This document shows, in pieces, positions 16,768 to 40,645 of a stretch of 41,332 bases of DNA. The translations under genes and the position numbers were made by a program. The number at the start of each line of letters is the position of its first letter. Position 1 is the first letter of the stretch. This stretch comes from Bacillota bacterium (GTDB lineage Bacteria; Bacillota; Limnochordia; Darwinibacteriales; DTU012). The DNA lies in NCBI GenBank assembly GCA_012798795.1, contig JAAZMN010000129.1, positions 1 through 41,332 of the forward strand, in the 5' to 3' direction. Below the pieces are notes generated by a model. That model saw only the letters and a list, made by a program, of their open reading frames with translations, did not search any database and had not been told where the DNA came from.

Positions 16768-16853
16768 TGGTGCCGAAGGAGGGAGTCGAACCCTCATGGG
16801 GCTAGCCCACACGATTTTGAGTCGTGCGTGTCTACCAATTCCACCACTTCGGC
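16768..16853 (-). tRNA. tRNA-Leu (anticodon CAA), class II with long variable arm, CCA encoded
   Basis: Hand-folded cloverleaf. Acceptor GCCGAAG/CTTCGGC. D-arm GTGG..ACAC. Anticodon stem CACGA/TCGTG with loop CTCAAAA. Long variable arm. T-arm GAGGG-TTCGACT-CCCTC. Discriminator A plus CCA. Confidence 0.93.
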
Positions 16854-27271: not shown

Positions 27272-28306
27272 ATGAAACAACTAACAACTATTCAGGATGT
27301 TACAGCTTATCAACTAGAAAAGGGGCGAAAATTTTATTCTGCAAATCACGATGAAATTGAAGCGGGATTAACTACCGATGTCTATTTTATTAAGACAAAG
27401 CAAATCCTTGATTCTGCAGGCTACTCTGATAAAAGGGTCAGTGCTGAAATTTTTCCCAGGCGTTCAGGTGTTGTAGCGGGAGTCAATGAAGCATTAGCAT
27501 TACTCAGTAAGCTGGATGTTGAAGTTGAATGCCTGCCTGAAGGTTCCAAGTTTGAAGCAAAAGATGTGATTATGCGGATTACCGGGCGTTATAGCGACTT
27601 CGGTATTTATGAAACAGTACTTTTGGGAATTTTAGCCAGTTCCAGCGGTTGGGCAACTGCTGCACATGAAATTGCTCAAGCAGCAGATGGGAAGCCTTTC
27701 TTTTGTTTTGGGGCACGTCACGTTCATCCGTCGGTTGCACCTGTCATGGAACGTGCGGCTGTTATCGGAGGGGCCAGCGGTGCTTCATGTATTTTGGGAG
27801 CAAAATTGTTGGGATTAGAACCCGTCGGAACGGTACCTCATGCACTGTTTTTAATTGTAGGAGATACAGTTAAGGGTACTAAATTGTATGATCAAATAAT
27901 GCCTCCTGAATCTCCGCGAACTATTTTAGTAGATACTTTTAAAGATGAAGTTGAAGAAAGCCTCCGCTTAAGTGAGGCGTTAGGTGAAAAATTACAGGGG
28001 GTACGCATTGATACACCCAGCGAGCGGGGTGGTGTTACTGTGGGTTTAGTCAAAGAACTGCGGTTTAAACTAGATTTAGCCGGTTACAAACATGTTCAGA
28101 TCTTTGCTTCAGGAGGCATGGATGTTGAACGAGTTAAAATGCTATCCGAAGCCGGTGTTGATGCATTCGGTGTCGGCAGTTATATTTCAGCAGCACCACC
28201 AATTGATATGACTATGGATATTAAAGTCGTTGAGGGTAATCCGGTTGCTAAACGCGGTAGATTACCAGGATTGACTGACAGCAAAGATTTAAAGAAAATT
28301 TTGTAG
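27272..28306 (+). CDS. Nicotinate phosphoribosyltransferase, short (archaeal-type) family
   Basis: 344 aa. TIM-barrel type II PRTase pattern (FGARHVHP, GTVPHAL, RIDTPSERGG, GVGSYIS). The subfamily assignment is by recall only. Confidence 0.6.
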   Translation: MKQLTTIQDVTAYQLEKGRKFYSANHDEIEAGLTTDVYFIKTKQILDSAGYSDKRVSAEIFPRRSGVVAGVNEALALLSKLDVEVECLPEGSKFEAKDVIMRITGRYSDFGIYETVLLGILASSSGWATAAHEIAQAADGKPFFCFGARHVHPSVAPVMERAAVIGGASGASCILGAKLLGLEPVGTVPHALFLIVGDTVKGTKLYDQIMPPESPRTILVDTFKDEVEESLRLSEALGEKLQGVRIDTPSERGGVTVGLVKELRFKLDLAGYKHVQIFASGGMDVERVKMLSEAGVDAFGVGSYISAAPPIDMTMDIKVVEGNPVAKRGRLPGLTDSKDLKKIL

Positions 28307-28331
28307 GGGCTGTTTTTAAGGGGGGGTAGAA

Positions 28332-28979
28332 TTGGCAAAAGAAACAATTAAATCTCGAGTAATCCAAACTGTGTACGATGATCCGTTTCTGAGTATTGAT
28401 GAAATTGCCGACAAAGTAACCACTACTCCGCGTTATGTACGGACAATTTTATCAGAAGCAGGGTTATCATTGATGCAGCTGCGAAAACAATATGCAAAAG
28501 CAATGGAAAAACAATTAGGATCCAGAACCCTGATTGAAGAAGTCAGACAGTATGAAGCGGATTTAAAGCTGACAAAAATTAAGGATCCAGCTGCAGCACG
28601 ACTGCTAAAGCAGGCTTCAGATGTCGAACTTATGCAAGTTAGCAGGGTGGAAAAGCTGGGCCGGATTCCAATTTATATCGAATTAACTACATATTTAGAA
28701 TTGCGATTGGCAGATACTGACGGCCCTTTAAGTCAACTGCTGATTTTGCCCCAAAATGGTGAAATTATTAAACAAAAACATTCCTGGATAGAAGTAGTTG
28801 CTAATAACAGTGCCATCAGTAAGCTGTTAGTAAATTCGGAAAATCAACCTCTGTTAAAACTCAGTTATTTATTGTACCAGGATTCGATACCCATTGCGTT
28901 AAAGACCCAGTGGCTGCAGACAGAAGGAATACTATTAAAGACAGATACTGGTAAGTTTGAGATAGCCGCTGAAGTGTAA
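28332..28979 (+). CDS. Putative transcriptional regulator: N-terminal HTH-like segment plus UTRA/chorismate-lyase-like C-terminal domain
   Basis: LSIDEIADKVTTTPRYVRTILSEAGL resembles an HTH. The C-terminal ~130 aa resembles the effector-binding domain of HutC/GntR regulators. TTG start after AAGGGGGGG. Confidence 0.45.
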   Translation: MAKETIKSRVIQTVYDDPFLSIDEIADKVTTTPRYVRTILSEAGLSLMQLRKQYAKAMEKQLGSRTLIEEVRQYEADLKLTKIKDPAAARLLKQASDVELMQVSRVEKLGRIPIYIELTTYLELRLADTDGPLSQLLILPQNGEIIKQKHSWIEVVANNSAISKLLVNSENQPLLKLSYLLYQDSIPIALKTQWLQTEGILLKTDTGKFEIAAEV

Positions 28980-29001
28980 TTAACGAGAAGGAGGGATTTA
29001 A

Positions 29002-30006
29002 GTGCCGCAGCCTTTGCTATCCGTAAGAGATCTAAAAATATGTTTTAATACTAAGGATGGGGTTATTCCAGCTGTTGATGGCGTTAGTTTTAATCTTGAT
29101 TCAGGTAAAACATTTGGTATTGTCGGAGAATCCGGCTCGGGAAAAAGTGTGACTGCTCTTTCTATAATGGGGTTAATCCCGGAGCCTCCGGGTAAAGTAA
29201 GCGGCCGGATTATATTTCAGGGTCAAAACCTGACTGCGATGAGCGAAGCCCAGCTGCAAAAAATTCGTGGTAATGATATCTCTATGATTTTTCAAGAACC
29301 GATGACTTCGCTAAACCCTGTGTTTACAATTGGCAATCAAATAATGGAAGCAATCGTACTGCATCAGAAGTTAAATAAAAAAGTTGCAAGGGAAAAAGCT
29401 GTTGAAATGTTGAATTTAGTTGGGATTTCTTCGCCGGAGAAGCGAATTGACGAATATCCTCATCAATTAAGCGGGGGAATGCTTCAGAGAGTTATGATAG
29501 CCATGGCTTTATCCTGCAATCCCAAGTTATTAATTGCCGACGAGCCTACGACGGCACTGGATGTTACCATTCAAGCGCAGATTTTGGATTTAATGCAGGA
29601 ACTTAGAAAACAGTTAGGAATGGCCATTATACTGATCACCCATGATTTGGGAGTTATTGCAGAGTTAGTAGAAACTGTTGCTGTAATGTATACAGGGAAA
29701 ATTGTAGAATACGGCAGCACTAAAAATATATTTACAAATCCTCAGCATCCATATACTGAAGGTTTACTTCGATCAATACCCAAACTTAAATCTCAGCAAA
29801 AACGTCTGCATGCGATTCCCGGAAGTGTTCCTACACCCGGAAATTTTCCCGTTGGCTGTGATTTTTATCCTCGCTGTAATTATTCAGAAGATATCTGCAG
29901 GATAAAAAAACCTAAACTTTATACTGTTGAAAATAGGCATTTGTCAGCTTGTTGGCGAGTTGTCAATTATAAAAGAGTTAAGGAAGTGGCCAAACCATAT
30001 GAGTAA
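29002..30006 (+). CDS. oppD: Oligopeptide/dipeptide-type ABC transporter ATPase (OppD/DppD-like)
   Basis: Walker A GESGSGKS, signature LSGGMLQR, Walker [14 protein letters not shown]-terminal oligopeptide-ABC extension with 4 Cys. GTG start after AAGGAGGG. Confidence 0.88.
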
Positions 30007-30979
30007 TGTTAATCATCACCCACTACTTAAAGTAGATAATCTTGTAAAATATTTTTCGATTACAAAAGGAATTCTTTTTTCCAAGCAAATAGGTGCGGTT
30101 AAGGCAGTAGATGATATAAGTTTTACTATTGCTCCAGGCGAAACACTCGGTTTGGTCGGTGAGTCAGGCTGTGGAAAGTCAACTGTAGGCAGAGTGATTT
30201 TAGGACTGACAAAAGCTACATCTGGTTCAGTATTTTTTGAAGGAAAGGATATTCAAGCTCTCAGTAAACATGAGCTGCGGGAATTGCGCAAAGACATGCA
30301 GATTATCTTTCAAGACCCTTATGCATCGCTAAATCCTCGCATGACCGTAAGGGAAATTATTGCTGAACCATTAGAGATTCATAAAATTGTTGATCACAAA
30401 GACTTTGATCGTAGAATTGATAAGCTTCTTGATGTCGTAGGGTTAGATTCCTCACTTAAACGCAGATTTCCACATGAGTTTTCCGGGGGCCAGCGGCAGA
30501 GAATAGGTATTGCACGAGCTTTAGCTGTTAATCCAAAATTTATAGTCTGTGATGAACCGGTATCAGCTTTGGATGTGTCCATTCAAGCACAGGTAGTTAA
30601 TTTGCTTCAGGATTTACAGGAAGAATTTGGTCTAACTTATCTCTTTATCGCTCACGATTTAAGTGTAATTAAGCATATCTCCAATCGAGTTGCCGTTATG
30701 TATTTAGGTAAAATTGTTGAACTGGCAGATAAAGATCAATTATACAATAACCCGCAGCACCCATATACTCAAGCTCTGTTATCAGCAATCCCAGTACCTA
30801 ATCCAGAGGTTAGATCAAACAGGATTATTCTAAATGGTGATGTACCAAGCCCGATAAATCCACCTTCTGGGTGTCGGTTTCATACTCGTTGTCCTCATGT
30901 AATGCAAATCTGTAAAGAATTAGAACCTGAAATGGAGGATAAAGGAAATCGGCATTATGCAGCCTGTCACTTAAAATGA
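29999..30979 (+). CDS. oppF: Oligopeptide/dipeptide-type ABC transporter ATPase (OppF/DppF-like)
   Basis: The ATG at 29999 overlaps the oppD stop (ATGAGTAA). Walker [31 protein letters not shown]-terminal 4-Cys extension. The 29927 ORF-track start is rejected. Confidence 0.88.
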
Positions 30980-31005
30980 CAGCATCCGGTATGAAATGTT
31001 GGATG

Positions 31006-31659
31006 CTAATTGTTTTGCTTTAAAGGGGAAACAGAATCTTTCAGCGTACTGATACCAGAAATTAACAGCAGAATAGTAATGCCTGCGGAACCAAGAGGAT
31101 CTATAAGTAGATTATAGGGTGCTGGTAATACTTTAGTCAGAACCAGGGTAAGAGCGATGGCAAAATCAGTAAACATTTTTGTATAATACAAACGCTTTTG
31201 AGAACTAAGGATATGGCCGGGCTTAAGTTTATTCAGCTTTTTATATCGCAGAAAAAAGTATCCGTTTACTAAAAAACCGCTGCAGGCTATGAACAAACCG
31301 AGTATGATATTTGTAGTTTCTTGCGGATTCATAAAGCGTCGAACTGCAGCTGTGCCAACAATAAGACTTGAAAATAGCATAATCACAGCTACAATCAAGC
31401 TTGACCTGCACTCCATTGTTAGGATCTGACGGTTGTCGGTAATTTTTCTTTTATTAATCAGCCGGGCAGTATACCAAGCTAGAATAAGACCGATTAATTC
31501 ACCTGTGCGGCGAAAAAAGTCACTAAACAGCAAGACGGACTTTCCGATAAAAGCCGCATACCCGGTGGTTATAGGCGCCCATCCGCTGAGTAGGCAGCTG
31601 TATAACAAGGTTCTTTCGCGGTGTACATCTACGGTGTCCTCTACAGTTTTGAAATTCAT
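31006..31659 (-). CDS. Cation-diffusion-facilitator-like membrane protein (TM domain only, degenerate metal site)
   Basis: Six predicted TM helices. SVLLFSDFFRRTGE and TKMFTDFAIAL sit where CDFs carry the H/DxxxD motifs. IDPLGSAGITILL is TM6-like. There is no cytoplasmic C-terminal domain. The ATG at 31659 follows GGTGGTGA. The ORF-track TTG at 31677 is the alternative. Confidence 0.5.
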   Translation of the reverse strand: MNFKTVEDTVDVHRERTLLYSCLLSGWAPITTGYAAFIGKSVLLFSDFFRRTGELIGLILAWYTARLINKRKITDNRQILTMECRSSLIVAVIMLFSSLIVGTAAVRRFMNPQETTNIILGLFIACSGFLVNGYFFLRYKKLNKLKPGHILSSQKRLYYTKMFTDFAIALTLVLTKVLPAPYNLLIDPLGSAGITILLLISGISTLKDSVSPLKQNN

Positions 31660-31681
31660 TATACTTTTCACCACCAATCAA

Positions 31682-32404
31682 TCATCTACCGAGCAATAAT
31701 GCAAGTAACGACAAACAGATTGAGGTAAATGAGGTTACTACAGGAATTACTATAGTATCAAGTCCGGCAATGCAAGTTGCTTCAACAAAAGAACCTATAA
31801 ATGCTAAAACAATTGAAGATATTAAGGCGTACCAAAAAGGAATGTCGGTAAATACAATCAATATAAGGAATACTCCGACAAATGTTGCAATGGCCATTGC
31901 CGCACTGCCTTCAATAGTTTTATTGGAATCAAATAGGGGAAATTTAAAATGATGCTTACCGAAACGTTTACCAACTAATGCAGCGGCAGCATCACCTACG
32001 CCCAAAATCATCAGTCCTATTATAATGTGGATTTTATATGTACTGCCAAGAAGCCCCCAAATGATTGCAATTAGTAAACTAACAGTGAGAAAGAAATAGC
32101 TTGCTTGTTTCAGCACTTCTGTGAAGCGTCCGCGACCGATGGATAATTTTTTCAATTTGGGGTTAAGGCTAGCTAGTGGTAGAATAATATATACTAAGCT
32201 TGCTAAAAGAATAACTGCAAGAACAGCCAGATACCATTCATTAAAAGCAAAGACTAAAATAAACACTGATAAACATGCCATCAGATGATATGCTTTGCGG
32301 CTTAATTCTTTCAGTTTTGGAAAAAAACGGCTAAAGATAGCAATTAGTCCTGCTGATAAACCATAGTAACCGATTAAAATAGCGATGGCATAGATAAAAC
32401 GCAT
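31682..32404 (-). CDS. CTP-dependent polyprenol/diacylglycerol kinase family membrane protein (CdsA/dolichol-kinase superfamily)
   Basis: Polytopic membrane protein with GVGDAAAALVGKRFGKHHF...NKTIEGSAAM, the signature of the cytidylyltransferase/phytol-dolichol kinase superfamily. Confidence 0.65.
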   Translation of the reverse strand: MRFIYAIAILIGYYGLSAGLIAIFSRFFPKLKELSRKAYHLMACLSVFILVFAFNEWYLAVLAVILLASLVYIILPLASLNPKLKKLSIGRGRFTEVLKQASYFFLTVSLLIAIIWGLLGSTYKIHIIIGLMILGVGDAAAALVGKRFGKHHFKFPLFDSNKTIEGSAAMAIATFVGVFLILIVFTDIPFWYALISSIVLAFIGSFVEATCIAGLDTIVIPVVTSFTSICLSLLALLLGR

Positions 32405-32574
32405 ATATATCCCTGCTTTCTCGTTATTTTATTATTCAAGCGTGGATCAATAAACTAAATATGCTTATATCTTAATGTATCATGATGGCTGTTAATTATC
32501 AAATAAACAAAAGGATTTTAATGTTAAAAATCTAAAGTTATTAGTGTAGTAAGATATTCTACGAGAATGGACTG

Positions 32575-33621
32575 ATGTTTATGCCATCTATGATGAATGC
32601 AATTATCAAAAAGCATGACAAACCTGGACTGTGGCTGGAAAAACAGCCCATACCAGACATAGGCATCAATGATGTTTTAGTCAAAGTTATCCGTTCATCA
32701 ATTTGTGGTACAGACGTAAATATTAATAAATGGGATGAATGGGCAAAAAGAACAATCCCGATTCCCATGATAATTGGTCATGAATTTGTTGGCAGAATAG
32801 TAGCAGTGGGTACTAATGTAAAAGATTTTAAGATAGGCGATATTGTTTCTGCCGAAGGACATATAGTCTGCGGCAGATGTAGAAATTGTCTTGCGGGCAG
32901 AAGACATTTATGCCCAAACACAAAGGGGGTAGGAGTTAATAGGCCCGGTGTTTTTGCTGAATATGCAGCCATTCCTGTAACTAATGTATGGCTGTGCAAT
33001 ACAGATATACCTCTGGATGTATTAAGTTGTTTCGACCCATTTGGTAATGCAGTTCATACTGCCTTAGCATTTGACATCCTTGGAGAGGATGTTTTAATTA
33101 CCGGTGCGGGACCAATTGGAGTTATGGCCGCAGCTGTTGCCAAATATGCAGGTGCACGATATGTTGTAGTTACCGATATAATCCCGTATCGGCTGGAGTT
33201 GGCGGAGAAAATGGGGGCCACCTTAACTGTTGATGTTAGTAAAGAACGGTTGAGTGATGTAATAAATGAATTAGGAATGCGCGAGGGCTTTGATGTAGGT
33301 CTGGAAATGTCCGGAAGTGCTCAAGCATTTTCAGATATGGTAGATCTTATGGTTCATGGTGGCAAAATAGCCATGTTGGGAATCCAAAAGCAAAATACTC
33401 AGCTAGATTGGAATAAAATTGTGTTTAACGGGTTAACAATTAAGGGTATTTACGGTCGTGAGATGTATGAAACATGGTATAAAATGACGGTTATGCTGGA
33501 ATCAGGACTAGATATCTCACCGGTAATTACCCACAGATTTCATTATACAGAATTTGAAGAAGCCTTTAACATAATGTGCAGTGGAAATTCAGGTAAAATT
33601 ATTCTTAATTGGGAGGACTAG
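32575..33621 (+). CDS. tdh: L-threonine 3-dehydrogenase (Zn-dependent MDR family)
   Basis: [26 protein letters not shown], structural-zinc [21 protein letters not shown]. Followed by kbl. Several in-frame ATGs (32575, 32581, 32590, 32593) leave the start uncertain. Confidence 0.9.
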
Positions 33622-33627
33622 ATTTGG

Positions 33628-34806
33628 ATGAAAAGTGCTTATCAATTTATTCAGGAAGAATTGGAAAAAGTCAAAGTGAGCGGATTGTGGAAAGATGAGC
33701 GGATTATTACTTCGCCCCAACAGACTTATATAGATACAATAAATCAAAAAAAAGTATTAAACATGTGTGCAAACAATTATCTCGGATTGGCTAATCATCC
33801 GCGAGTAATTAAGGCTGCCAAGGATAGTTATACAAAATATGGTTTTGGCCTTTCATCAGTTCGGTTTATCTGTGGAACCCAAACTATTCATAAACGTTTG
33901 GAAGAAAAAATCAGCAATTTTTTAAAAACAGAGGATACTATTCTTTATTCGTCTTGCTTTGACGCTAATACCGGATTATTTGAAACATTATTAGGGCCAG
34001 AAGATGCCATTATCAGCGATGAACTCAATCATGCCAGTATTATAGACGGAGTGCGTTTATGTAAAGCAAAACGCTTTGTCTATCAAAATAATGATATGGA
34101 AGATCTTAATCAACAGCTGAAAGCTGCAGCTTCATGTCGCATAAAAATGATTGCTACTGATGGTGTTTTTTCAATGGACGGCACAGGAGCTAATTTAAGA
34201 GGAATTTGTGATTTAGCTGATACCTATGATGCTTTAGTGATGGTTGATGATAGTCATGCAACCGGATTTATGGGAGAGAACGGCAGAGGTACTCATGAGT
34301 ATTGTCAAGTAATGGATCGGATAGATATTCTAACAGGTACGCTGGGTAAAGCACTTGGTGGTGCTAGCGGTGGTTATACCAGCGGCAGAAAAGCCATAAT
34401 TGATTTACTAAGACAGAGATCGCGTCCTTATTTATTTTCTAATACCCTTGCACCTGCCATTGCTGCATCAGCTTGTGAAGTATTTGATATTCTTTCTGAG
34501 AGCAATGAGTATGGCAATCGAGTGCTGGAAAATGCCAGATATTTTCGAGAAAAATTAGAGGAGGCGGGGTTTGACATTCCTGCAGGGGAACATCCAATCA
34601 TTCCTATTATGCTGTATGATGCAAATACTGCTCAGGAAATGGCAAAACGCATGTTAGATAAGGGTGTATATGTAATAGGATTTTCCTATCCTGTTGTACC
34701 AAAGGGGCAGGCAAGAATTCGCACTCAAGTTTCAGCTGCCCATACGAAAGAGGATCTAGATTTTGCAGTAAAAGCATTTATTGATGTGAGAAATGAAATG
34801 GGTTGA
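33628..34806 (+). CDS. kbl: Glycine C-acetyltransferase (2-amino-3-ketobutyrate CoA ligase)
   Basis: [31 protein letters not shown] (PLP lysine). Classic tdh-kbl pair. Confidence 0.92.
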
Positions 34807-34831
34807 GTTATTATAGAAAATATGGTATAGT
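34803..34831 (+). promoter_or_regulatory. Candidate extended -10 sigma-A promoter of the SCIFF operon
   Basis: TTGAGT (34803..34808), N17, TGg-TATAGT (-10 at 34826..34831). Overlaps the kbl stop codon. The palindrome TGGTAT-agta-ATACCA (34823..34838) overlaps the -10. Confidence 0.45.
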
Positions 34832-34869
34832 AATACCACAGAAAGAGGATTTATTTGGTAAGGGGGATT

Positions 34870-35031
34870 ATGGTGAAACAAGAAAAGACTGAACATAAGC
34901 ATATTAAAACACTGACTAAATCTTCATTGACAAAAACTTTAGTTAGCGGTGGGTGTGGAGAGTGTCAAGCATCTTGTCAATCAGCTTGTAAGACCTCTTG
35001 TACAGTAGGGAATCAAGCTTGTGAGCGCTAA
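34870..35031 (+). CDS. SCIFF (six-cysteines-in-forty-five) ribosomal peptide precursor, 53 aa
   Basis: Not in the ORF track (too short). ATG 34870 follows AAGGGGG. Translation is MVKQEKTEHKHIKTLTKSSLTKTLVSGGCGECQASCQSACKTSCTVGNQACER. The KHIKTL leader and the GGCGECQxSCQSACKTSCTVxNQxCE core are the SCIFF family signature. It lies immediately upstream of its radical-SAM partner. Confidence 0.9.
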   Translation: MVKQEKTEHKHIKTLTKSSLTKTLVSGGCGECQASCQSACKTSCTVGNQACER

Positions 35032-35055
35032 TTATGCTGATATTTACTTGCAGTT

Positions 35056-35090
35056 GTAGCAACCTTCTGCCTGAAGGTTGTTATTTTTTT
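35056..35090 (+). terminator. Intrinsic terminator/attenuator between the SCIFF precursor and the maturase
   Basis: Core stem CAACCTTC / GAAGGTTG (35060..35067 and 35073..35080), extendable with A-T/G-U pairs. 5-nt loop, then TTATTTTTTT. The maturase SD GAGGTGA follows. Confidence 0.65.
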
Positions 35091-35109
35091 GATTATGAGG
35101 TGAATAAAT

Positions 35110-36477
35110 GTGCTGGATAAAGAATGTGTGCACTGCTTTTCTCATAACCATCAATACTTCGTTGTAGACGGAAACTCCGGTTCTGTTCATTTATTAGATG
35201 AGTTAGCTTATCAGATGATAAAAGCTATTAAAGACGGATTAGAGTTTGATGAAACAGCAGTAATCAATCATTTGTCAAATGAGTATTCTCCTAGAAAAAT
35301 TAAAGAAGCTTTTGAGGAAATAACAGTCCTTGTAAAAGAAAATCTGCTTTTCAGCCCGGACTTTACTGAAATACCAAAGGAAATCGATTCTGTTGTAAAA
35401 GCGTTGTGCTTGAATGTTGCTCATGACTGTAATCTAAGATGTAAATACTGTTTTGCACAGACCGGAGATTTTGGTGGGAAAAGGGAATTGATGAGTTATG
35501 CTGTAGCCAAGAAAGCCGTTGATTTTTTGATAAATGCTTCGAAAAATCGACATCAACTGGAACTGGATTTTTTCGGTGGTGAACCATTACTTAACTTTGA
35601 AGTTGTTAAAAAAACTGTTCTTTACGGTGAAGAGCAAGCTAAAAAACACAATAAGAATATTCGTTTTACTATAACCACTAATGGAATTGGATTAACTAAA
35701 GCAATTCAAGATTTTTTGAATGAAAAAATGTATAATGTTGTTTTAAGTATTGACGGACGTCGGGAAGTAAATGATGCCGTAAGGCAGACTATTAATGGTG
35801 AAGGTTCAGTTCACGATGTTATTGTGCCTAAATATCAAGAGTTTGTTAAAGCTCGTAAAGGTAAGCAGTATTATGTGCGGGGAACATTTACTAAAAATAA
35901 TTTGGATTTCTGTGAAGACGTACTTTATTTAGCTGGATTAGGTTTTGATCAAATTTCCATGGAACCAGTTGTTGCTGATTCTGCATTGGATTATGCTTTA
36001 ACAGAAGCCGAATTGCCAACTATTTTTCATGAATATCATCGACTTGCAGATGAATTACTAGAATATTATCAGACGAAGAAATCATTTAATTTCTTTCATT
36101 TTAATGTTGAGTTAAAAAAAGGACCCTGTTTATATAAACGGATAGCCGGTTGTGGTGCCGGACATGAATACATTGCAGTGACACCAACTGGTGAATTGTA
36201 TCCTTGTCATCAGTTCATCGGTGATGAAAAATACAAAATCGGAGATGTATCGCAGGGAATTATTCGGCCTGAGCTCGGTGAACGGTTGAAACACGCCCAT
36301 GTGCTCAACAAGCCTACATGCCGCAAATGCTGGGCTAAATATTACTGCAGCGGTGGTTGTCATTTTAATAATCTCAAATATGGCGGTTCTTTATCTGATC
36401 CATACCTACTCGCGTGCGAAATGGAGCGGAAGCGTTTAGAGTGCAGTTTGTACATTTACAGCAGCCTTAACAATTAA
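35110..36477 (+). CDS. SCIFF radical SAM/SPASM maturase (thioether-forming, CteB/Tte1186-like)
   Basis: 455 aa. Radical SAM CNLRCKYC (CxxxCxxC). C-terminal SPASM cysteines (CGAGHEY..., CHQF, CRKCWAKYYCSGGCH). N-terminal VVDGNSGSVHLLDE RRE-like segment. GTG start 6 nt after GAGGTGA. Confidence 0.9.
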   Translation: MLDKECVHCFSHNHQYFVVDGNSGSVHLLDELAYQMIKAIKDGLEFDETAVINHLSNEYSPRKIKEAFEEITVLVKENLLFSPDFTEIPKEIDSVVKALCLNVAHDCNLRCKYCFAQTGDFGGKRELMSYAVAKKAVDFLINASKNRHQLELDFFGGEPLLNFEVVKKTVLYGEEQAKKHNKNIRFTITTNGIGLTKAIQDFLNEKMYNVVLSIDGRREVNDAVRQTINGEGSVHDVIVPKYQEFVKARKGKQYYVRGTFTKNNLDFCEDVLYLAGLGFDQISMEPVVADSALDYALTEAELPTIFHEYHRLADELLEYYQTKKSFNFFHFNVELKKGPCLYKRIAGCGAGHEYIAVTPTGELYPCHQFIGDEKYKIGDVSQGIIRPELGERLKHAHVLNKPTCRKCWAKYYCSGGCHFNNLKYGGSLSDPYLLACEMERKRLECSLYIYSSLNN

Positions 36478-36586
36478 AGGATATGGTATTATGCTGCAGT
36501 GGTCCAGCATAATGGTAATATTTTTCTATAAATTATTACATTAAGAAGGACTTCGCTCTTTAATCATAGAATATACTATTACGAAA

Positions 36587-36662
36587 AAGTTAGGGAACAA
36601 TGATCGATACTCATTAACTGGGCACTTTGAGTATGGGGAGTTAGTAGTGCAACCGACCACTT
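36587..36662 (+). promoter_or_regulatory. c-di-GMP-II (class II cyclic-di-GMP) riboswitch aptamer in the pilB leader
   Basis: GGGAACAATGAT...CTGGGCACTT...GAGTTAGTAGTGCAACCGACC contains the conserved blocks of the c-di-GMP-II class as I recall them from the crystallised Clostridium acetobutylicum aptamer. The internal helix is kept by different bases (ATACTCA/TGAGTAT here), which is covariation-like support. It ends about 10 nt before the pilB SD. Confidence 0.8.
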
Positions 36663-36684
36663 ATACCGTGTGAGGTGATGCGGT

Positions 36685-38382
36685 TTGGCACAAAGGAAAC
36701 GTCTGGGGGATATACTTATAGAAAGAGGATTACTTAACGAACAGCAGCTGCAAAAAGCCTTGGCTATGCAGCGGGATTCTGGCGAAAAGTTAGGTAATGC
36801 TTTAATTAAGCTTGGTTTTATAACCCCAGATAATTTAGCTGATGCTCTAAGTGTACATCTTGGATATCCAAGAGTTGATTTGAATCGTCATTATATTTCA
36901 ACTCCTGTGGTCAAAATGATACCAGAGGAGTTTTTAGCATCTCATGAGATATTTCCCCTTGATTTAAATAATAATGTAATGACAGTAGCTATGACGGACC
37001 CGTTAAACATTTTAGTAATAGATGAACTGCAGAGGATTACAGGTTATATAGTTAAGCCCGTAATAGCTACAAGTGATGAGATAAAAGCGGCGGTTAATCG
37101 TTCGCATGATATTATCTCTACTGCTCGGAAAGTCTTTGATGAATATACTGATGAAGATTCGGATCAATCTGATCAGAATCAGGAGGAGTATTTAGGTGAT
37201 GCGCCGGGAGTTCGTTTGGCCAACATAATTTTGGAACAAGCCGTTAGGGAGAAAGCCAGTGATATTCATTTGGAGCCTCAAGAGGAAGAGCTTGACGTCA
37301 GATTTAGGGTAGACGGTATTTTACGAAAAGTAATGACAGTTCCTAAAAGGCTGCGCAATGATGTAAATTCGCGGATCAAAATTATGAGTAATCTTGACAT
37401 TACTGAAAGGCGTCGTCCGCAGGATGGCAGAATTCAAACTAAGATAGGCGATTCTGAAGTTGATATGCGTATTTCAACGTTACCGACAATTCATGGTGAA
37501 AAAATTGTTGCACGTGTATTAAACAAATCTCACGGACCCTTAAGTATTAAAGAGTTTGGATTTGATGAAGATTCTAACGAAAAAATTCTTCGAATTCTAA
37601 ACATTTCTCAAGGTTTAATATTAGTAACCGGCCCGACAGGCAGTGGCAAGACAACCACTTTGTATGGATTTTTAAATCATCTAAATACAGTAGAAAAAAA
37701 CATTATTACAGTTGAAGACCCGGTTGAGTATCAATTAACTGGAATTAATCAGGTACAGATAAATCCAAAAATAGGATTAACTTTTGCTGCAGGATTGCGA
37801 AGCGTATTGCGCCAAGATCCGGATATTATTATGGTAGGTGAAATCAGAGATGATGAGACAGCAGAAATTGCAGTTCGTTCGGCTTTAACCGGGCATTTAG
37901 TTTTGAGTACTGTGCATACCAACAATACGGTTGCTACCATCAGCCGATTAATGAACATGAATGTTGATCCTTATTTAATTAGTGGGACTATATCTGCTAT
38001 AATTTCACAAAGATTAGTGCGAAAAATCTGTCCTGAATGTAAAGAAGAAGTTTTACTAACTGATCCTTTAGCTATTAGGTTTATTAAATCTCTGGGGGTT
38101 TCTGTCCCCAAAGTCGTATATCAAGGAAAAGGATGTCCGTTGTGCAAGGATTCAGGCTATTTAGGCAGAGTTCCGCTGGAAGAAGTCTTGATTGTCAATA
38201 GGCAGCTGCGCAAGGCAATTGATGCTAAAGCCAGTGAAGATGATATGCGGGAGATTGCAATCCGCAGTGGAATGGTACCGCTGCAGGTTAATGCTGTATT
38301 AAAATTGATTCAAGGAATTACAACTGTTTCTGAAGTGATTCGTACTGTATACAGTACAGATGAACAGGAGGCGTTGGATTGA
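36685..38382 (+). CDS. pilB: Type IV pilus assembly ATPase PilB (GspE family) with N-terminal MshEN domain
   Basis: 565 aa. MshEN/T2SSE_N N-terminus. Walker A GPTGSGKTTT, Asp box, Walker B, His box. Tetracysteine CPEC...CPLC. TTG start 7 nt after GAGGTG. Confidence 0.92.
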   Translation: MAQRKRLGDILIERGLLNEQQLQKALAMQRDSGEKLGNALIKLGFITPDNLADALSVHLGYPRVDLNRHYISTPVVKMIPEEFLASHEIFPLDLNNNVMTVAMTDPLNILVIDELQRITGYIVKPVIATSDEIKAAVNRSHDIISTARKVFDEYTDEDSDQSDQNQEEYLGDAPGVRLANIILEQAVREKASDIHLEPQEEELDVRFRVDGILRKVMTVPKRLRNDVNSRIKIMSNLDITERRRPQDGRIQTKIGDSEVDMRISTLPTIHGEKIVARVLNKSHGPLSIKEFGFDEDSNEKILRILNISQGLILVTGPTGSGKTTTLYGFLNHLNTVEKNIITVEDPVEYQLTGINQVQINPKIGLTFAAGLRSVLRQDPDIIMVGEIRDDETAEIAVRSALTGHLVLSTVHTNNTVATISRLMNMNVDPYLISGTISAIISQRLVRKICPECKEEVLLTDPLAIRFIKSLGVSVPKVVYQGKGCPLCKDSGYLGRVPLEEVLIVNRQLRKAIDAKASEDDMREIAIRSGMVPLQVNAVLKLIQGITTVSEVIRTVYSTDEQEALD

Positions 38383-39419
38383 AACCTGTCAGCCATATAC
38401 ATGAATTACTTGAAATTGCAATTGATCAACGTGCTTCGGATTTACATATTTCTCCGGGGATTCCTCCATATTTGCGAATTTTTGGGAAGGTTATTCCTCT
38501 AACAGCTTATGAGAAATTAGCACCAAATGAAATTGAAGTATTGATAAAACCAATAATAGATGCTGAGCAGCACAAAATTTTAAATAAACATGGCGAAGTG
38601 GATTTTTCCTATGGAGTGCGAGGCGTTGGCCGCTTTCGGTGCAGCGTATATCAGCAGCGGGGTTCGCTGTCAGCAGCCATTCGTGTAATTAATGCCAAAA
38701 TACATTCCTTACAGCAGTTGGGATTACCCAGTATTATCAAGGATATTGCCAGAAAAAAAGATGGACTTATTCTGGTTACCGGCCCGACCGGAAGTGGTAA
38801 ATCTACAACCTTAGCAGCTGTGATCAATTTAATTAATGAGGAGCGCCAAGGTGTAATTATTACTTTGGAGGATCCGATAGAGTATTTACACAGTCATAAA
38901 CGTTGTATTATTAATCAGCGCGAAGTAGGTACGGATACACGCAGCTTTGCTAATGGGCTTAGGGCAGCATTAAGAGCGGATCCGGATGTGATTTTAGTTG
39001 GTGAAATGCGAGATTTGGAGACAATAGCTACCGCCATAACTGCCGCTGAAACCGGACATCTTGTTTTATCAACCTTACATACACGAGGAGCTGCCAAGAC
39101 TATAGATCGAATAATTGATGCATTTCCTCCTGATAATCAACAGCAGATTAGAGTTCAATTATCAATGGTTTTAGAAGCAGTAATATCCCAGCAGCTGATT
39201 GTTAAAAAGGATGGAGACGGAATGGTGCCTGCGGTAGAAGTTATGCTGGGAACACCGGCAATTCGAAATTTAATTCGCGAAGGGAAAACGCATCAGATAA
39301 ATTCTGTAATTGAAACGGGAAAGAGATTTGGGATGAAGACTTTGACATCGTCCGTAAATGAATTAGTTTATGCGGATCAGATCAATTTAGAAGATGCTCA
39401 AATTTTTGGGTTTGATTAA
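38379..39419 (+). CDS. pilT: Twitching-motility (retraction) ATPase PilT
   Basis: 346 aa. ASDLHI, GPTGSGKSTT, DPIEY, AALRADPDVILVGEMRD, GHLVLSTLHT, AIRNLIREGK. The TTG start overlaps the pilB stop by 4 nt and GGAGG lies upstream. Confidence 0.9.
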   Translation: MKPVSHIHELLEIAIDQRASDLHISPGIPPYLRIFGKVIPLTAYEKLAPNEIEVLIKPIIDAEQHKILNKHGEVDFSYGVRGVGRFRCSVYQQRGSLSAAIRVINAKIHSLQQLGLPSIIKDIARKKDGLILVTGPTGSGKSTTLAAVINLINEERQGVIITLEDPIEYLHSHKRCIINQREVGTDTRSFANGLRAALRADPDVILVGEMRDLETIATAITAAETGHLVLSTLHTRGAAKTIDRIIDAFPPDNQQQIRVQLSMVLEAVISQQLIVKKDGDGMVPAVEVMLGTPAIRNLIREGKTHQINSVIETGKRFGMKTLTSSVNELVYADQINLEDAQIFGFD

Positions 39420-40645
39420 TGGTGGTGAAGCATATGATCCAATTTCAATATAAAGCTAGAGACAGACAAGGCAGAGAAGTAAACGGGACTATTGAAATGG
39501 ATACGAAGGAGCTTGCAGTTACGAGTTTGCGGGAGCAGGGTTATTATGTTACCGAGATAAAAGAAGTATCCAAACGCCGTTTGAGTAACATAGTTATATT
39601 TCAGTCCAGTAAAACCCTAAAAGCAAAAGATTTGGCTTTGTTTTGCCGTCAATTTGCTATTCAATTAGAAGCAGGTTTGTCTTTAACTGCATGTTTAGAG
39701 CTGCTGGAAGAACAGTCTGCAGATGAGATTCTTAAAAACGTTTTAAGAACAATTAGATTAGATGTAGCCAGCGGCATGACATTCACAAATGCAGTTGAAA
39801 AGCATAAAGAAATATTTCCGCATGAGTTTATTTACTTAATTTCAGCTGGAGAAATTGCCGGAGAACTGCCTGCTGTATTAGAGCAGTTGGCTGTTTACTA
39901 TGAAAGAGAAGATGAGCTGCGTAAAAAACTGTCCGAAGCTTTGATGTACCCGATTGTTATTGCTAGTATAGCTGTTATAGTTGTTATTGCACTAATATTT
40001 TTTGTTTTGCCGATGCTGATCAAAAACTTTTCCGCTTTTGGAGTGCAAACTCCCCGGATTACACAGGTAATATTAGACGCCAGAGACTTCTTAATCGACT
40101 TTTGGTATGTGTTTGTTGGATTTATTGTATTTTTTATTGTATTTATAAAATGGTATTTAAAGACTAAAAGAGGATGTTATCAAAAAGATCTGCTCAAGTT
40201 GAAACTGCCGATTATGGGCAAAATCAATCAGATGGTTATTTTTTCTCGAATTTCGCGAGTGTTAGGACTGCTGTTGGCCAGCGGAATTTCCATGGTAAAA
40301 AGTTTAGAAATTACAGAGCGGTTAATTACCAACGTTTGGATTCGGGACTCATTAAACGATTCAAGATTAGCTGTTGAAAAAGGGCAGGGATTGACTGAAC
40401 CGTTGAAAAAGAGTAATTTATTTCCAGCAATGTTTGTGCAGATGGTTGCAGTAGGCGAGGAAACCGGGAACTTAGAACAGACTTTAAAACATCTGTCTGA
40501 TTATTACGATAAGGAAGTAAATTTTACAGTTTCAGCATTTACAAAACTGCTTGAACCTGTAATGATGGTTGTACTGGCCATAGTAGTATTATTTGTTTTA
40601 GTATCGGTATATTTACCCATGATTCAAATGGTAACACAGCTGTAA
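39419..40645 (+). CDS. pilC: Type IV pilus platform protein PilC (GspF family)
   Basis: 408 aa. Two GspF repeats (FCRQFAIQLEAGLSL..., FSRISRVLGLLLASGISMVKSL...) and three TM segments. The ATG overlaps the pilT stop (TAATG). Alternative ATG at 39434. Confidence 0.9.
   Translation: MVVKHMIQFQYKARDRQGREVNGTIEMDTKELAVTSLREQGYYVTEIKEVSKRRLSNIVIFQSSKTLKAKDLALFCRQFAIQLEAGLSLTACLELLEEQSADEILKNVLRTIRLDVASGMTFTNAVEKHKEIFPHEFIYLISAGEIAGELPAVLEQLAVYYEREDELRKKLSEALMYPIVIASIAVIVVIALIFFVLPMLIKNFSAFGVQTPRITQVILDARDFLIDFWYVFVGFIVFFIVFIKWYLKTKRGCYQKDLLKLKLPIMGKINQMVIFSRISRVLGLLLASGISMVKSLEITERLITNVWIRDSLNDSRLAVEKGQGLTEPLKKSNLFPAMFVQMVAVGEETGNLEQTLKHLSDYYDKEVNFTVSAFTKLLEPVMMVVLAIVVLFVLVSVYLPMIQMVTQL

Follow-up and report, generated by a model that had tools for sequence, protein, structure and literature searches.

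Between kbl (NF005394, 661 bits; end 34806) and a gene for a radical SAM/SPASM enzyme (start 35110), on the 41,332-nucleotide stretch analysed here (the window), lies a gap of 303 nt. A preliminary description of this DNA, which put the gap at 300 nt, had read in it a 53-codon ORF for a precursor of the SCIFF (six-Cys-in-45) family. The locus raises the question of whether this small ORF is a genuine SCIFF gene and, if so, where its translation begins, what its partner enzyme does to the product and which process the modified peptide serves. The explanation that we regard as very probable is a standard two-gene scfA-scfB ranthipeptide operon of an uncultured anaerobic Bacillota from a biogas-type habitat, with Limnochordia as its probable kin, acting by the mechanism proposed below.

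The scfA peptide and its maturase

The coding features on which the assignment rests are as follows.

34870..35031, + strand: scfA, SCIFF ranthipeptide precursor (TIGR03973 and PF13165); 53 codons from ATG 34870, 52 from GTG 34873, 58 from TTG 34855
34948..35028, + strand: scfA core, residues 27-53, GGCGECQASCQSACKTSCTVGNQACER; six Cys, all substitutions relative to the closest orthologue synonymous
35110..36477, + strand: scfB, radical SAM/SPASM SCIFF maturase (TIGR03974); 455 aa, GTG start, GAGGTG before the start

Read directly, the scfA frame is intact from 34870 to the TAA stop codon at 35029-35031 and, taken from the ATG, encodes the 53-residue peptide MVKQEKTEHKHIKTLTKSSLTKTLVSGGCGECQASCQSACKTSCTVGNQACER. 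This peptide scores 83.1 bits against TIGR03973 (cut-off 50, E 9.6e-24), the check that had been proposed for its SCIFF identity and that bears the identity out, and 83.4 bits against PF13165 (cut-off 27, E 1e-23). Residues 10-52 correspond to positions 1-43 of the SCIFF model, with the HMM alignment beginning at the K of KHIKTL (residues 10-15), and His9 to Ser26 make up 18 residues before the GG, as the spacing of the family motif (~18) requires. The Cys residues (29, 32, 36, 40, 44 and 51) lie inside the conserved block GGCGECQASCQSACKTSCTVGNQAC (family pattern GGCGECQxSCQSACKTSCTVGNQxC); they span the last 25 residues, not the last 24 as first described. The start of scfB is 78 nt past the scfA stop codon on the same strand, which places the SCIFF gene next to that for ScfB. 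By every sequence-level criterion tried, scfA is a member of the SCIFF family. As reported, the ORF list had missed it, because even its longest form (from TTG 34855) is, at 58 aa, shorter than the usual default threshold of 60 aa. A scan of both strands of the window found no second SCIFF-like or comparable Cys-rich ORF. A search of PDB sequences with the scfA peptide returned a weak match to epoxyqueuosine reductase (E 0.005), which reflects a ferredoxin-like CxxC pattern and is uninformative, and a weak match to the glutamate-synthase model NF009454 was set aside as a Cys-pattern artefact of the same kind.

The gene at 35110..36477 had been taken for the partner radical SAM/SPASM enzyme, and TIGR03974 supports that view at 618.4 bits against a cut-off of 425. 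The exception model not_ScfB (NF040492) gave 542.7 bits, below its cut-off of 855, and all other maturase models tried were likewise below cut-off, those of sactipeptide maturases by a wide margin (for example RumMC, 105 against 720). The protein matches the Pfam domains Radical_SAM, Fer4_12 and SPASM, and its residues 6-450 align with the structure of CteB (5WGG/5WHY; E 1.6e-147). Mapped through the CteB alignment, ten Fe-S ligands are present in ScfB, namely Cys107/111/114 of the CX3CX2C motif, Cys348/366/417 of auxiliary cluster I and Cys404/407/413/436 of auxiliary cluster II, which correspond to CteB C104/108/111, C344/362/413 and C400/403/409/432, respectively (PMC10177961). The sequence alignment, which starts at ScfB residue 6, runs without large gaps across the N-terminal ~90 residues, the region that forms the RRE in CteB (PMC6231123). 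The model scores, the match to CteB and the ligands identify scfB as an intact gene for a SCIFF maturase of the thioether-forming radical SAM/SPASM type. Within the closest clade Cys6 of ScfB, in a CVH motif (residues 6-9, 35125..35136), is conserved; it is absent from CteB-like enzymes. An extra metal site made up of Cys6 and Cys9 was considered and dropped, the CxxC pair being found in just 8 of 75 loci.

The pair is ordinary, a textbook SCIFF precursor and maturase of a type already known from thousands of anaerobic Firmicutes. The homologues of scfA that were found number 1795, and scfA is paired with scfB in 75 of 81 related loci. This particular scfAB is itself already known, as its exact sequence stands in public assemblies with a SCIFF Pfam match: the exact scfA peptide is present on at least 19 public contigs (from biogas and other metagenomes, and one NCBI MAG), where gene calls of both 53 and 58 aa exist with a precomputed PF13165 match attached. 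Seven occurrences, including a biogas-fermenter metagenome and the NCBI MAG GCA_041936325.1, were examined; positions 34780..35125 are identical in six of them, and the seventh carries two non-coding differences, one of which is in the loop of the hairpin described below. Against species-representative genomes, ScfB reaches 65% identity at most.

The closest orthologue, a locus of a Logan assembly (L001), shares 91% nucleotide identity with the window across the scfA region. In the 27-codon core there are three substitutions between the two, all three synonymous, while the leader contains four nonsynonymous and two synonymous changes together with a one-codon indel. Judged by this comparison, the core is under purifying selection. 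A constrained core behind a looser leader is the pattern expected of a RiPP precursor.

Start codon and leader

Two further features bear on the point at which scfA translation begins.

34860..34867, + strand: Shine-Dalgarno sequence AAGGGGGA of scfA, by direct reading; invariant in L001
34870..34947, + strand: scfA leader, residues 1-26, with the MVKQEKTE extension, His at the canonical Met position, KHIKTL and TKSSLTKTLVS; boundary by analogy with CteA, in which the leader is the 18 residues ahead of GGC (PMC6231123)

The AAGGGGG reported ahead of the ATG is there, at 34860-34866, and is followed by ATT and by the ATG at 34870. Three starts are candidates in the frame, TTG 34855, ATG 34870 and GTG 34873. 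The duplex of the Shine-Dalgarno sequence with the anti-Shine-Dalgarno is worth -10.8 kcal/mol, and the spacer is 2-3 nt to the ATG and 5 nt to the GTG. Upstream of the TTG, 5 nt on its 5' side, is a Shine-Dalgarno-like motif, AAAGAGG, with a duplex of -9.2 kcal/mol. In the orthologue L001 the window ATG is replaced by ATC, and five codons upstream of that position stands an in-frame TAA, which leaves the GTG as the only shared start. Because of these two differences in L001, and because the spacing of the Shine-Dalgarno sequence suits it better, GTG 34873 appears the more likely start than ATG 34870; the peptide would then have 52 residues, so that of the 53-codon ORF first described the intact frame stands but its first codon probably does not. 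In this strain the ATG could still be used, being a stronger start codon than GTG.

The preliminary description had also singled out the leader as longer than that of the canonical M-KHIKTL form, with His (CAT) in the usual Met position and a start eight codons upstream. The His is as described (His9, codon 34894-34896) and the extension is real, but it is not special, and a start eight codons upstream is less likely than GTG 34873. Among the best 120 homologues, a Met stands at -18, counted from the GG, in 85, and 34 are without it, with extensions mostly of 1-8 residues; the canonical Met is thus not a defining feature of SCIFFs. All 14 of the closest loci have an N-terminal extension, and in all the closest relatives found through ScfB (57-65% identity, in MAGs labelled Limnochordia or Bacillota) it measures 1-7 residues, as in MKARRKHVKTL, MGSGKLKKRHIKTL and MKTKKFKHVKTL. 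The scfA extension would on this evidence be a clade-typical, poorly constrained addition 5' of the recognition motif.

It could be argued instead that translation starts at ATG 34870, yielding 53 residues, and that the 8-residue extension is a functional, lineage-specific element of the leader that, for example, changes RRE binding or acts as an export or processing signal. This is possible but doubtful. The ATG is the strongest start codon and sits just behind a strong Shine-Dalgarno sequence, a similar KQEKT(K/E)H extension is kept in the closest orthologue, and none of the best 120 homologues has a longer extension with good support. Against these points, the ATG is unconserved and its spacer is short, and the extensions of the clade are unrelated in sequence save for a basic or polar character. 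This dissimilarity, with their variable length and the nonsynonymous changes and indel that the leader has gathered, indicates weak constraint. Far less probable is a start at TTG 34855, giving the 58-aa peptide of some public gene calls: gene callers chose it on at least 19 contigs and it has the AAAGAGG motif in front, but the in-frame TAA of L001 falls between the TTG position and the GTG, so that the start is not shared, and TTG is weak as a start codon and has the stronger Shine-Dalgarno sequence downstream of it. That scfA is an untranslated ORF, arisen by chance or in decay, a suspicion that its small size invites, can scarcely be reconciled with HMM E-values of ~1e-23, a core in which only synonymous changes separate it from L001, a conserved Shine-Dalgarno sequence, an intact partner enzyme and an identical sequence on six of the seven independent contigs, the other differing at non-coding positions only.

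Predicted cross-link and expression of the precursor

The reaction carried out by ScfB may be predicted from characterized relatives. CteA/CteB (thermocellin, Clostridium thermocellum) has the CX3CX2C and SPASM cysteines that are found in ScfB, and CteA has the KHIKTL leader motif and the patterned core of scfA (PMC6231123); it is likewise a two-gene unit without protease or transporter. Differences from CteA are the His in place of the canonical first Met, 7-8 extra N-terminal residues and two core positions (Ala for Thr or Ser), and the host of scfAB belongs to an uncultured lineage. Tte1186a/Tte1186 of Caldanaerobacter subterraneus, a pair of the same SCIFF/ScfB family, was the first system for which in vitro work established one Cys32-Thr37 thioether and three [4Fe-4S] clusters (PMC8326336, PMC10177961). 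The equivalents of these two residues here are Cys40 and Thr45; scfA has a longer leader than Tte1186a. Both Tte1186 and CteB install just one thioether, which links Cys32, the fourth Cys, with Thr37 in vitro and with Thr34 on co-expression in E. coli (PMC8326336, PMC8172795), and the acceptor residue is disputed between the reports (PMC8326336). It is one thioether, not six, that has been demonstrated for canonical SCIFFs, and the bond goes to the gamma-carbon of Thr, as shown for CteA and Tte1186a only; because it reaches a side-chain carbon, SCIFFs are ranthipeptides and not sactipeptides (PMC8326336, PMC8172795). Shifted by eight residues, the CteA/Tte1186a link of Cys32 to Thr34 or Thr37 becomes the predicted one in scfA, from Cys40 to Thr42 (C-gamma) or Thr45.

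Two other thioether-forming systems are further comparisons. PapB, which acts on PapA (freyrasin) in Paenibacillus polymyxa, is a homologous radical SAM/SPASM ranthipeptide maturase that joins the thioether to a non-alpha carbon, but its model gives ScfB 275 bits, below the cut-off of 340, and PapA carries six CX3D motifs that become six Cys-Asp C-beta links (PMC8172795), motifs that the scfA core does not have. QhpD, the maturase of quinohemoprotein amine dehydrogenase, is a related thioether-forming radical SAM/SPASM enzyme (PMC8326336); ScfB scores 274 bits on TIGR03906 against a cut-off of 453, the substrate of QhpD is a protein subunit and not a small RiPP precursor, and the window contains no qhp genes.

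The leader of CteA extends the beta-sheet of the N-terminal RRE of CteB, and in CteB a substrate Cys becomes bound to auxiliary cluster I at an open iron site (PMC6231123, PMC10177961). On the model of the homologous CteB/CteA and Tte1186, the predicted N-terminal RRE of ScfB would bind the KHIKTL region of the leader as an added beta-strand, in a peptide whose translation most likely begins at GTG 34873. The CX3CX2C cluster would then reductively cleave SAM, and the 5'-deoxyadenosyl radical would take a hydrogen atom from the side chain of a core Thr (Thr42, or Thr45). The thiol of Cys40, held by auxiliary cluster I at its open iron site, would form the thioether, with a change of -2 Da per link.

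The expression of the two genes is framed by three putative signals.

34803..34831, + strand: promoter-like site with extended -10, from a consensus scan (TTGAGT, 17-nt spacer, TATAGT, TG upstream)
35056..35091, + strand: terminator/attenuator-like hairpin between scfA and scfB (12-bp stem GTAGCAACCTTC/GAAGGTTGTTAT, 5-nt loop, T7)
36487..36514, + strand: weak terminator-like hairpin after scfB, from a consensus scan (imperfect T-run)

The promoter-like site, a candidate promoter for scfA, overlaps the stop codon of kbl; in L001 its -35 hexamer and TGn motif are conserved and the -10 reads TATTGT. The hairpin after scfB is probably the end of the two-gene unit. Between the genes, the RNA folds at -21.9 kcal/mol (z -4.6), and the stem and T-run are invariant in L001, the changes in that locus and in L088 sitting in the loop. 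Of the 75 related loci in which scfA could be recognised, 44 show a hairpin at least as stable as -12 kcal/mol that ends at a T-run no more than 130 nt past the gene, against 1-7 of 75 in equal-sized control windows inside scfB or upstream. Such a hairpin and T-run would probably end most transcripts after scfA, leaving more mRNA for the precursor than for the enzyme. An excess of precursor mRNA is common in RiPP operons. Alternatively, termination at the hairpin may be complete, scfB then having a start site of its own, or the hairpin may serve RNA stability. The stem at 35056..35084 has nearly the same sequence (GCAACCTTC/GAAGGTTGC) in L001-L004, L006, L008, L009, L013 and L060, in which the loops differ, and its conservation at a ScfB identity of only ~60% is beyond the needs of a plain terminator.

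Gene neighbourhood and probable function

The window is ordinary chromosome, with genes for a glycosyltransferase, PspC, a patatin, an enzyme of the EPSP-synthase family, DnaE, accD/accA, pfk, pyk, a MscS-like channel, an ABC exporter, Fur, ribonucleotide reductase, an L,D-transpeptidase, an SLH protein, polA, fpg and coaE. Genes for SLT, a QRPTase-like protein, two Opp-type ATPases, a CDF transporter and a membrane protein come ahead of the segment tdh, kbl, scfA, scfB, pilB, pilT, pilC, the order of which is the same in L001. In agreement with the preliminary description, no transporter, protease or immunity gene adjoins the pair, which is preceded by tdh and kbl and followed by a riboswitch with pilB/pilT/pilC. 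The absence of a flanking protease, dedicated exporter and immunity gene is typical of SCIFF loci. The riboswitch is the remaining feature.

36584..36665, + strand: c-di-GMP-II riboswitch aptamer (RF01786, 66.8 bits, cut-off 53.5), 20 nt upstream of pilB

Of the 14 closest relatives, 12 have the riboswitch in the interval from scfB to pilB. The N-terminus of PilB matches an MshE-type c-di-GMP-binding motif (NF053729, 74 bits), so that, from riboswitch and motif together, the pilus operon may sense c-di-GMP at both the RNA and the protein level.

Several observations concern the wider surroundings. The neighbourhood of the clade (27272..40645; L001-L013 and L060) consists of the gene for the QRPTase-like protein, that for a 215-aa protein without Pfam match, oppD, oppF, a variable insert, scfA, scfB, the riboswitch and pilBTC. 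The insert comprises CDF, membrane protein, tdh and kbl in the window and L001, a divergent chemotaxis receptor gene in eight relatives, an oxidoreductase with DUF1667 in two and a beta-CASP nuclease in one; in L060 there is nothing. Within it, at 31006..32404 (- strand), the CDF cation-efflux protein is 99% and the adjacent 240-aa membrane protein (no Pfam match) 100% identical to L001, whereas the flanking oppF, tdh, kbl, pilB, pilT and pilC are only 85-94% identical, which suggests a recent exchange of this segment between the two lineages. The two Opp/Dpp-type ABC ATPase genes at 29002..30979 (+ strand) overlap by ~80 nt as listed, the TTG start of the second having probably been called too early; there is no permease or substrate-binding gene beside them, and the same orphan pair is directly upstream of scfA in L060. 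Between the ABC exporter gene and fur, at 16771..16853 (- strand), is a single tRNA gene (RF00005, 60 bits), the length of which (83 nt) suggests a type with a long variable arm.

The setting invites the proposal that scfAB is tied functionally to the downstream type IV pilus operon, for instance as the source of a signal that coordinates surface motility or attachment, instead of standing as a unit by itself. Despite a protein identity of ~60%, 11-12 of the 14 closest loci retain the succession scfAB, c-di-GMP-II riboswitch, pilBTC, while the gene directly upstream of scfA varies among them and is, in the eight relatives with the divergent insert, a chemotaxis receptor gene. We nevertheless consider the proposal unlikely. 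Synteny extends to the wider neighbourhood, where oppF lies a few kb upstream in 8 of the 14 loci, and none of the other 67 loci has the linkage, so that inherited gene order is the simpler explanation. In addition, the pil operon carries a riboswitch leader of its own, and scfB is followed by a terminator-like hairpin. A slightly more specific form of the idea, that in this Limnochordia-like clade the SCIFF peptide is a signal coupled to pilus-based motility or attachment, or in a lesser variant that the long, basic extension at the N-terminus has a function in the leader, seems to us more speculative still.

As an independent two-gene unit, scfAB would most likely make a signal of cell physiology or of quorum type rather than an antibiotic. 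The wide distribution of SCIFFs in Clostridia speaks against an antibiotic role (PMC8326336). In C. beijerinckii, disruption of precursor and maturase lowers the expression of sporulation genes and raises that of agr, and reviews now list the family as related to quorum sensing (PMC8102284, PMC8326336). The statement in the preliminary description that the function of SCIFF peptides is unknown is, in the light of these phenotypes and reviews, partly outdated, since knockouts in solventogenic clostridia point to a quorum-sensing-like role, although it is still partly true. Evidence for the signalling role comes from knockouts in two Clostridium species, and the role is carried over to the present lineage by analogy.

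For the window itself the gain is one small gene that a length-filtered ORF list had dropped, and little beyond a correct annotation; scfAB is one more example of SCIFF and ScfB, from an uncultured biogas-type Bacillota. The comparative case for GTG 34873 over ATG 34870 is possibly useful for annotation, and the frequency of leader extensions in the family means that 'M-KHIKTL' is no rule. The family-wide hairpin between scfA and scfB suggests transcription attenuation as the means by which the ratio of precursor to enzyme is set. The conserved position beside a riboswitch-controlled pilus operon provides a cheap lead in the search for a SCIFF phenotype and, if it were true, a coupling to the pilus would give the SCIFF family a concrete physiological output.
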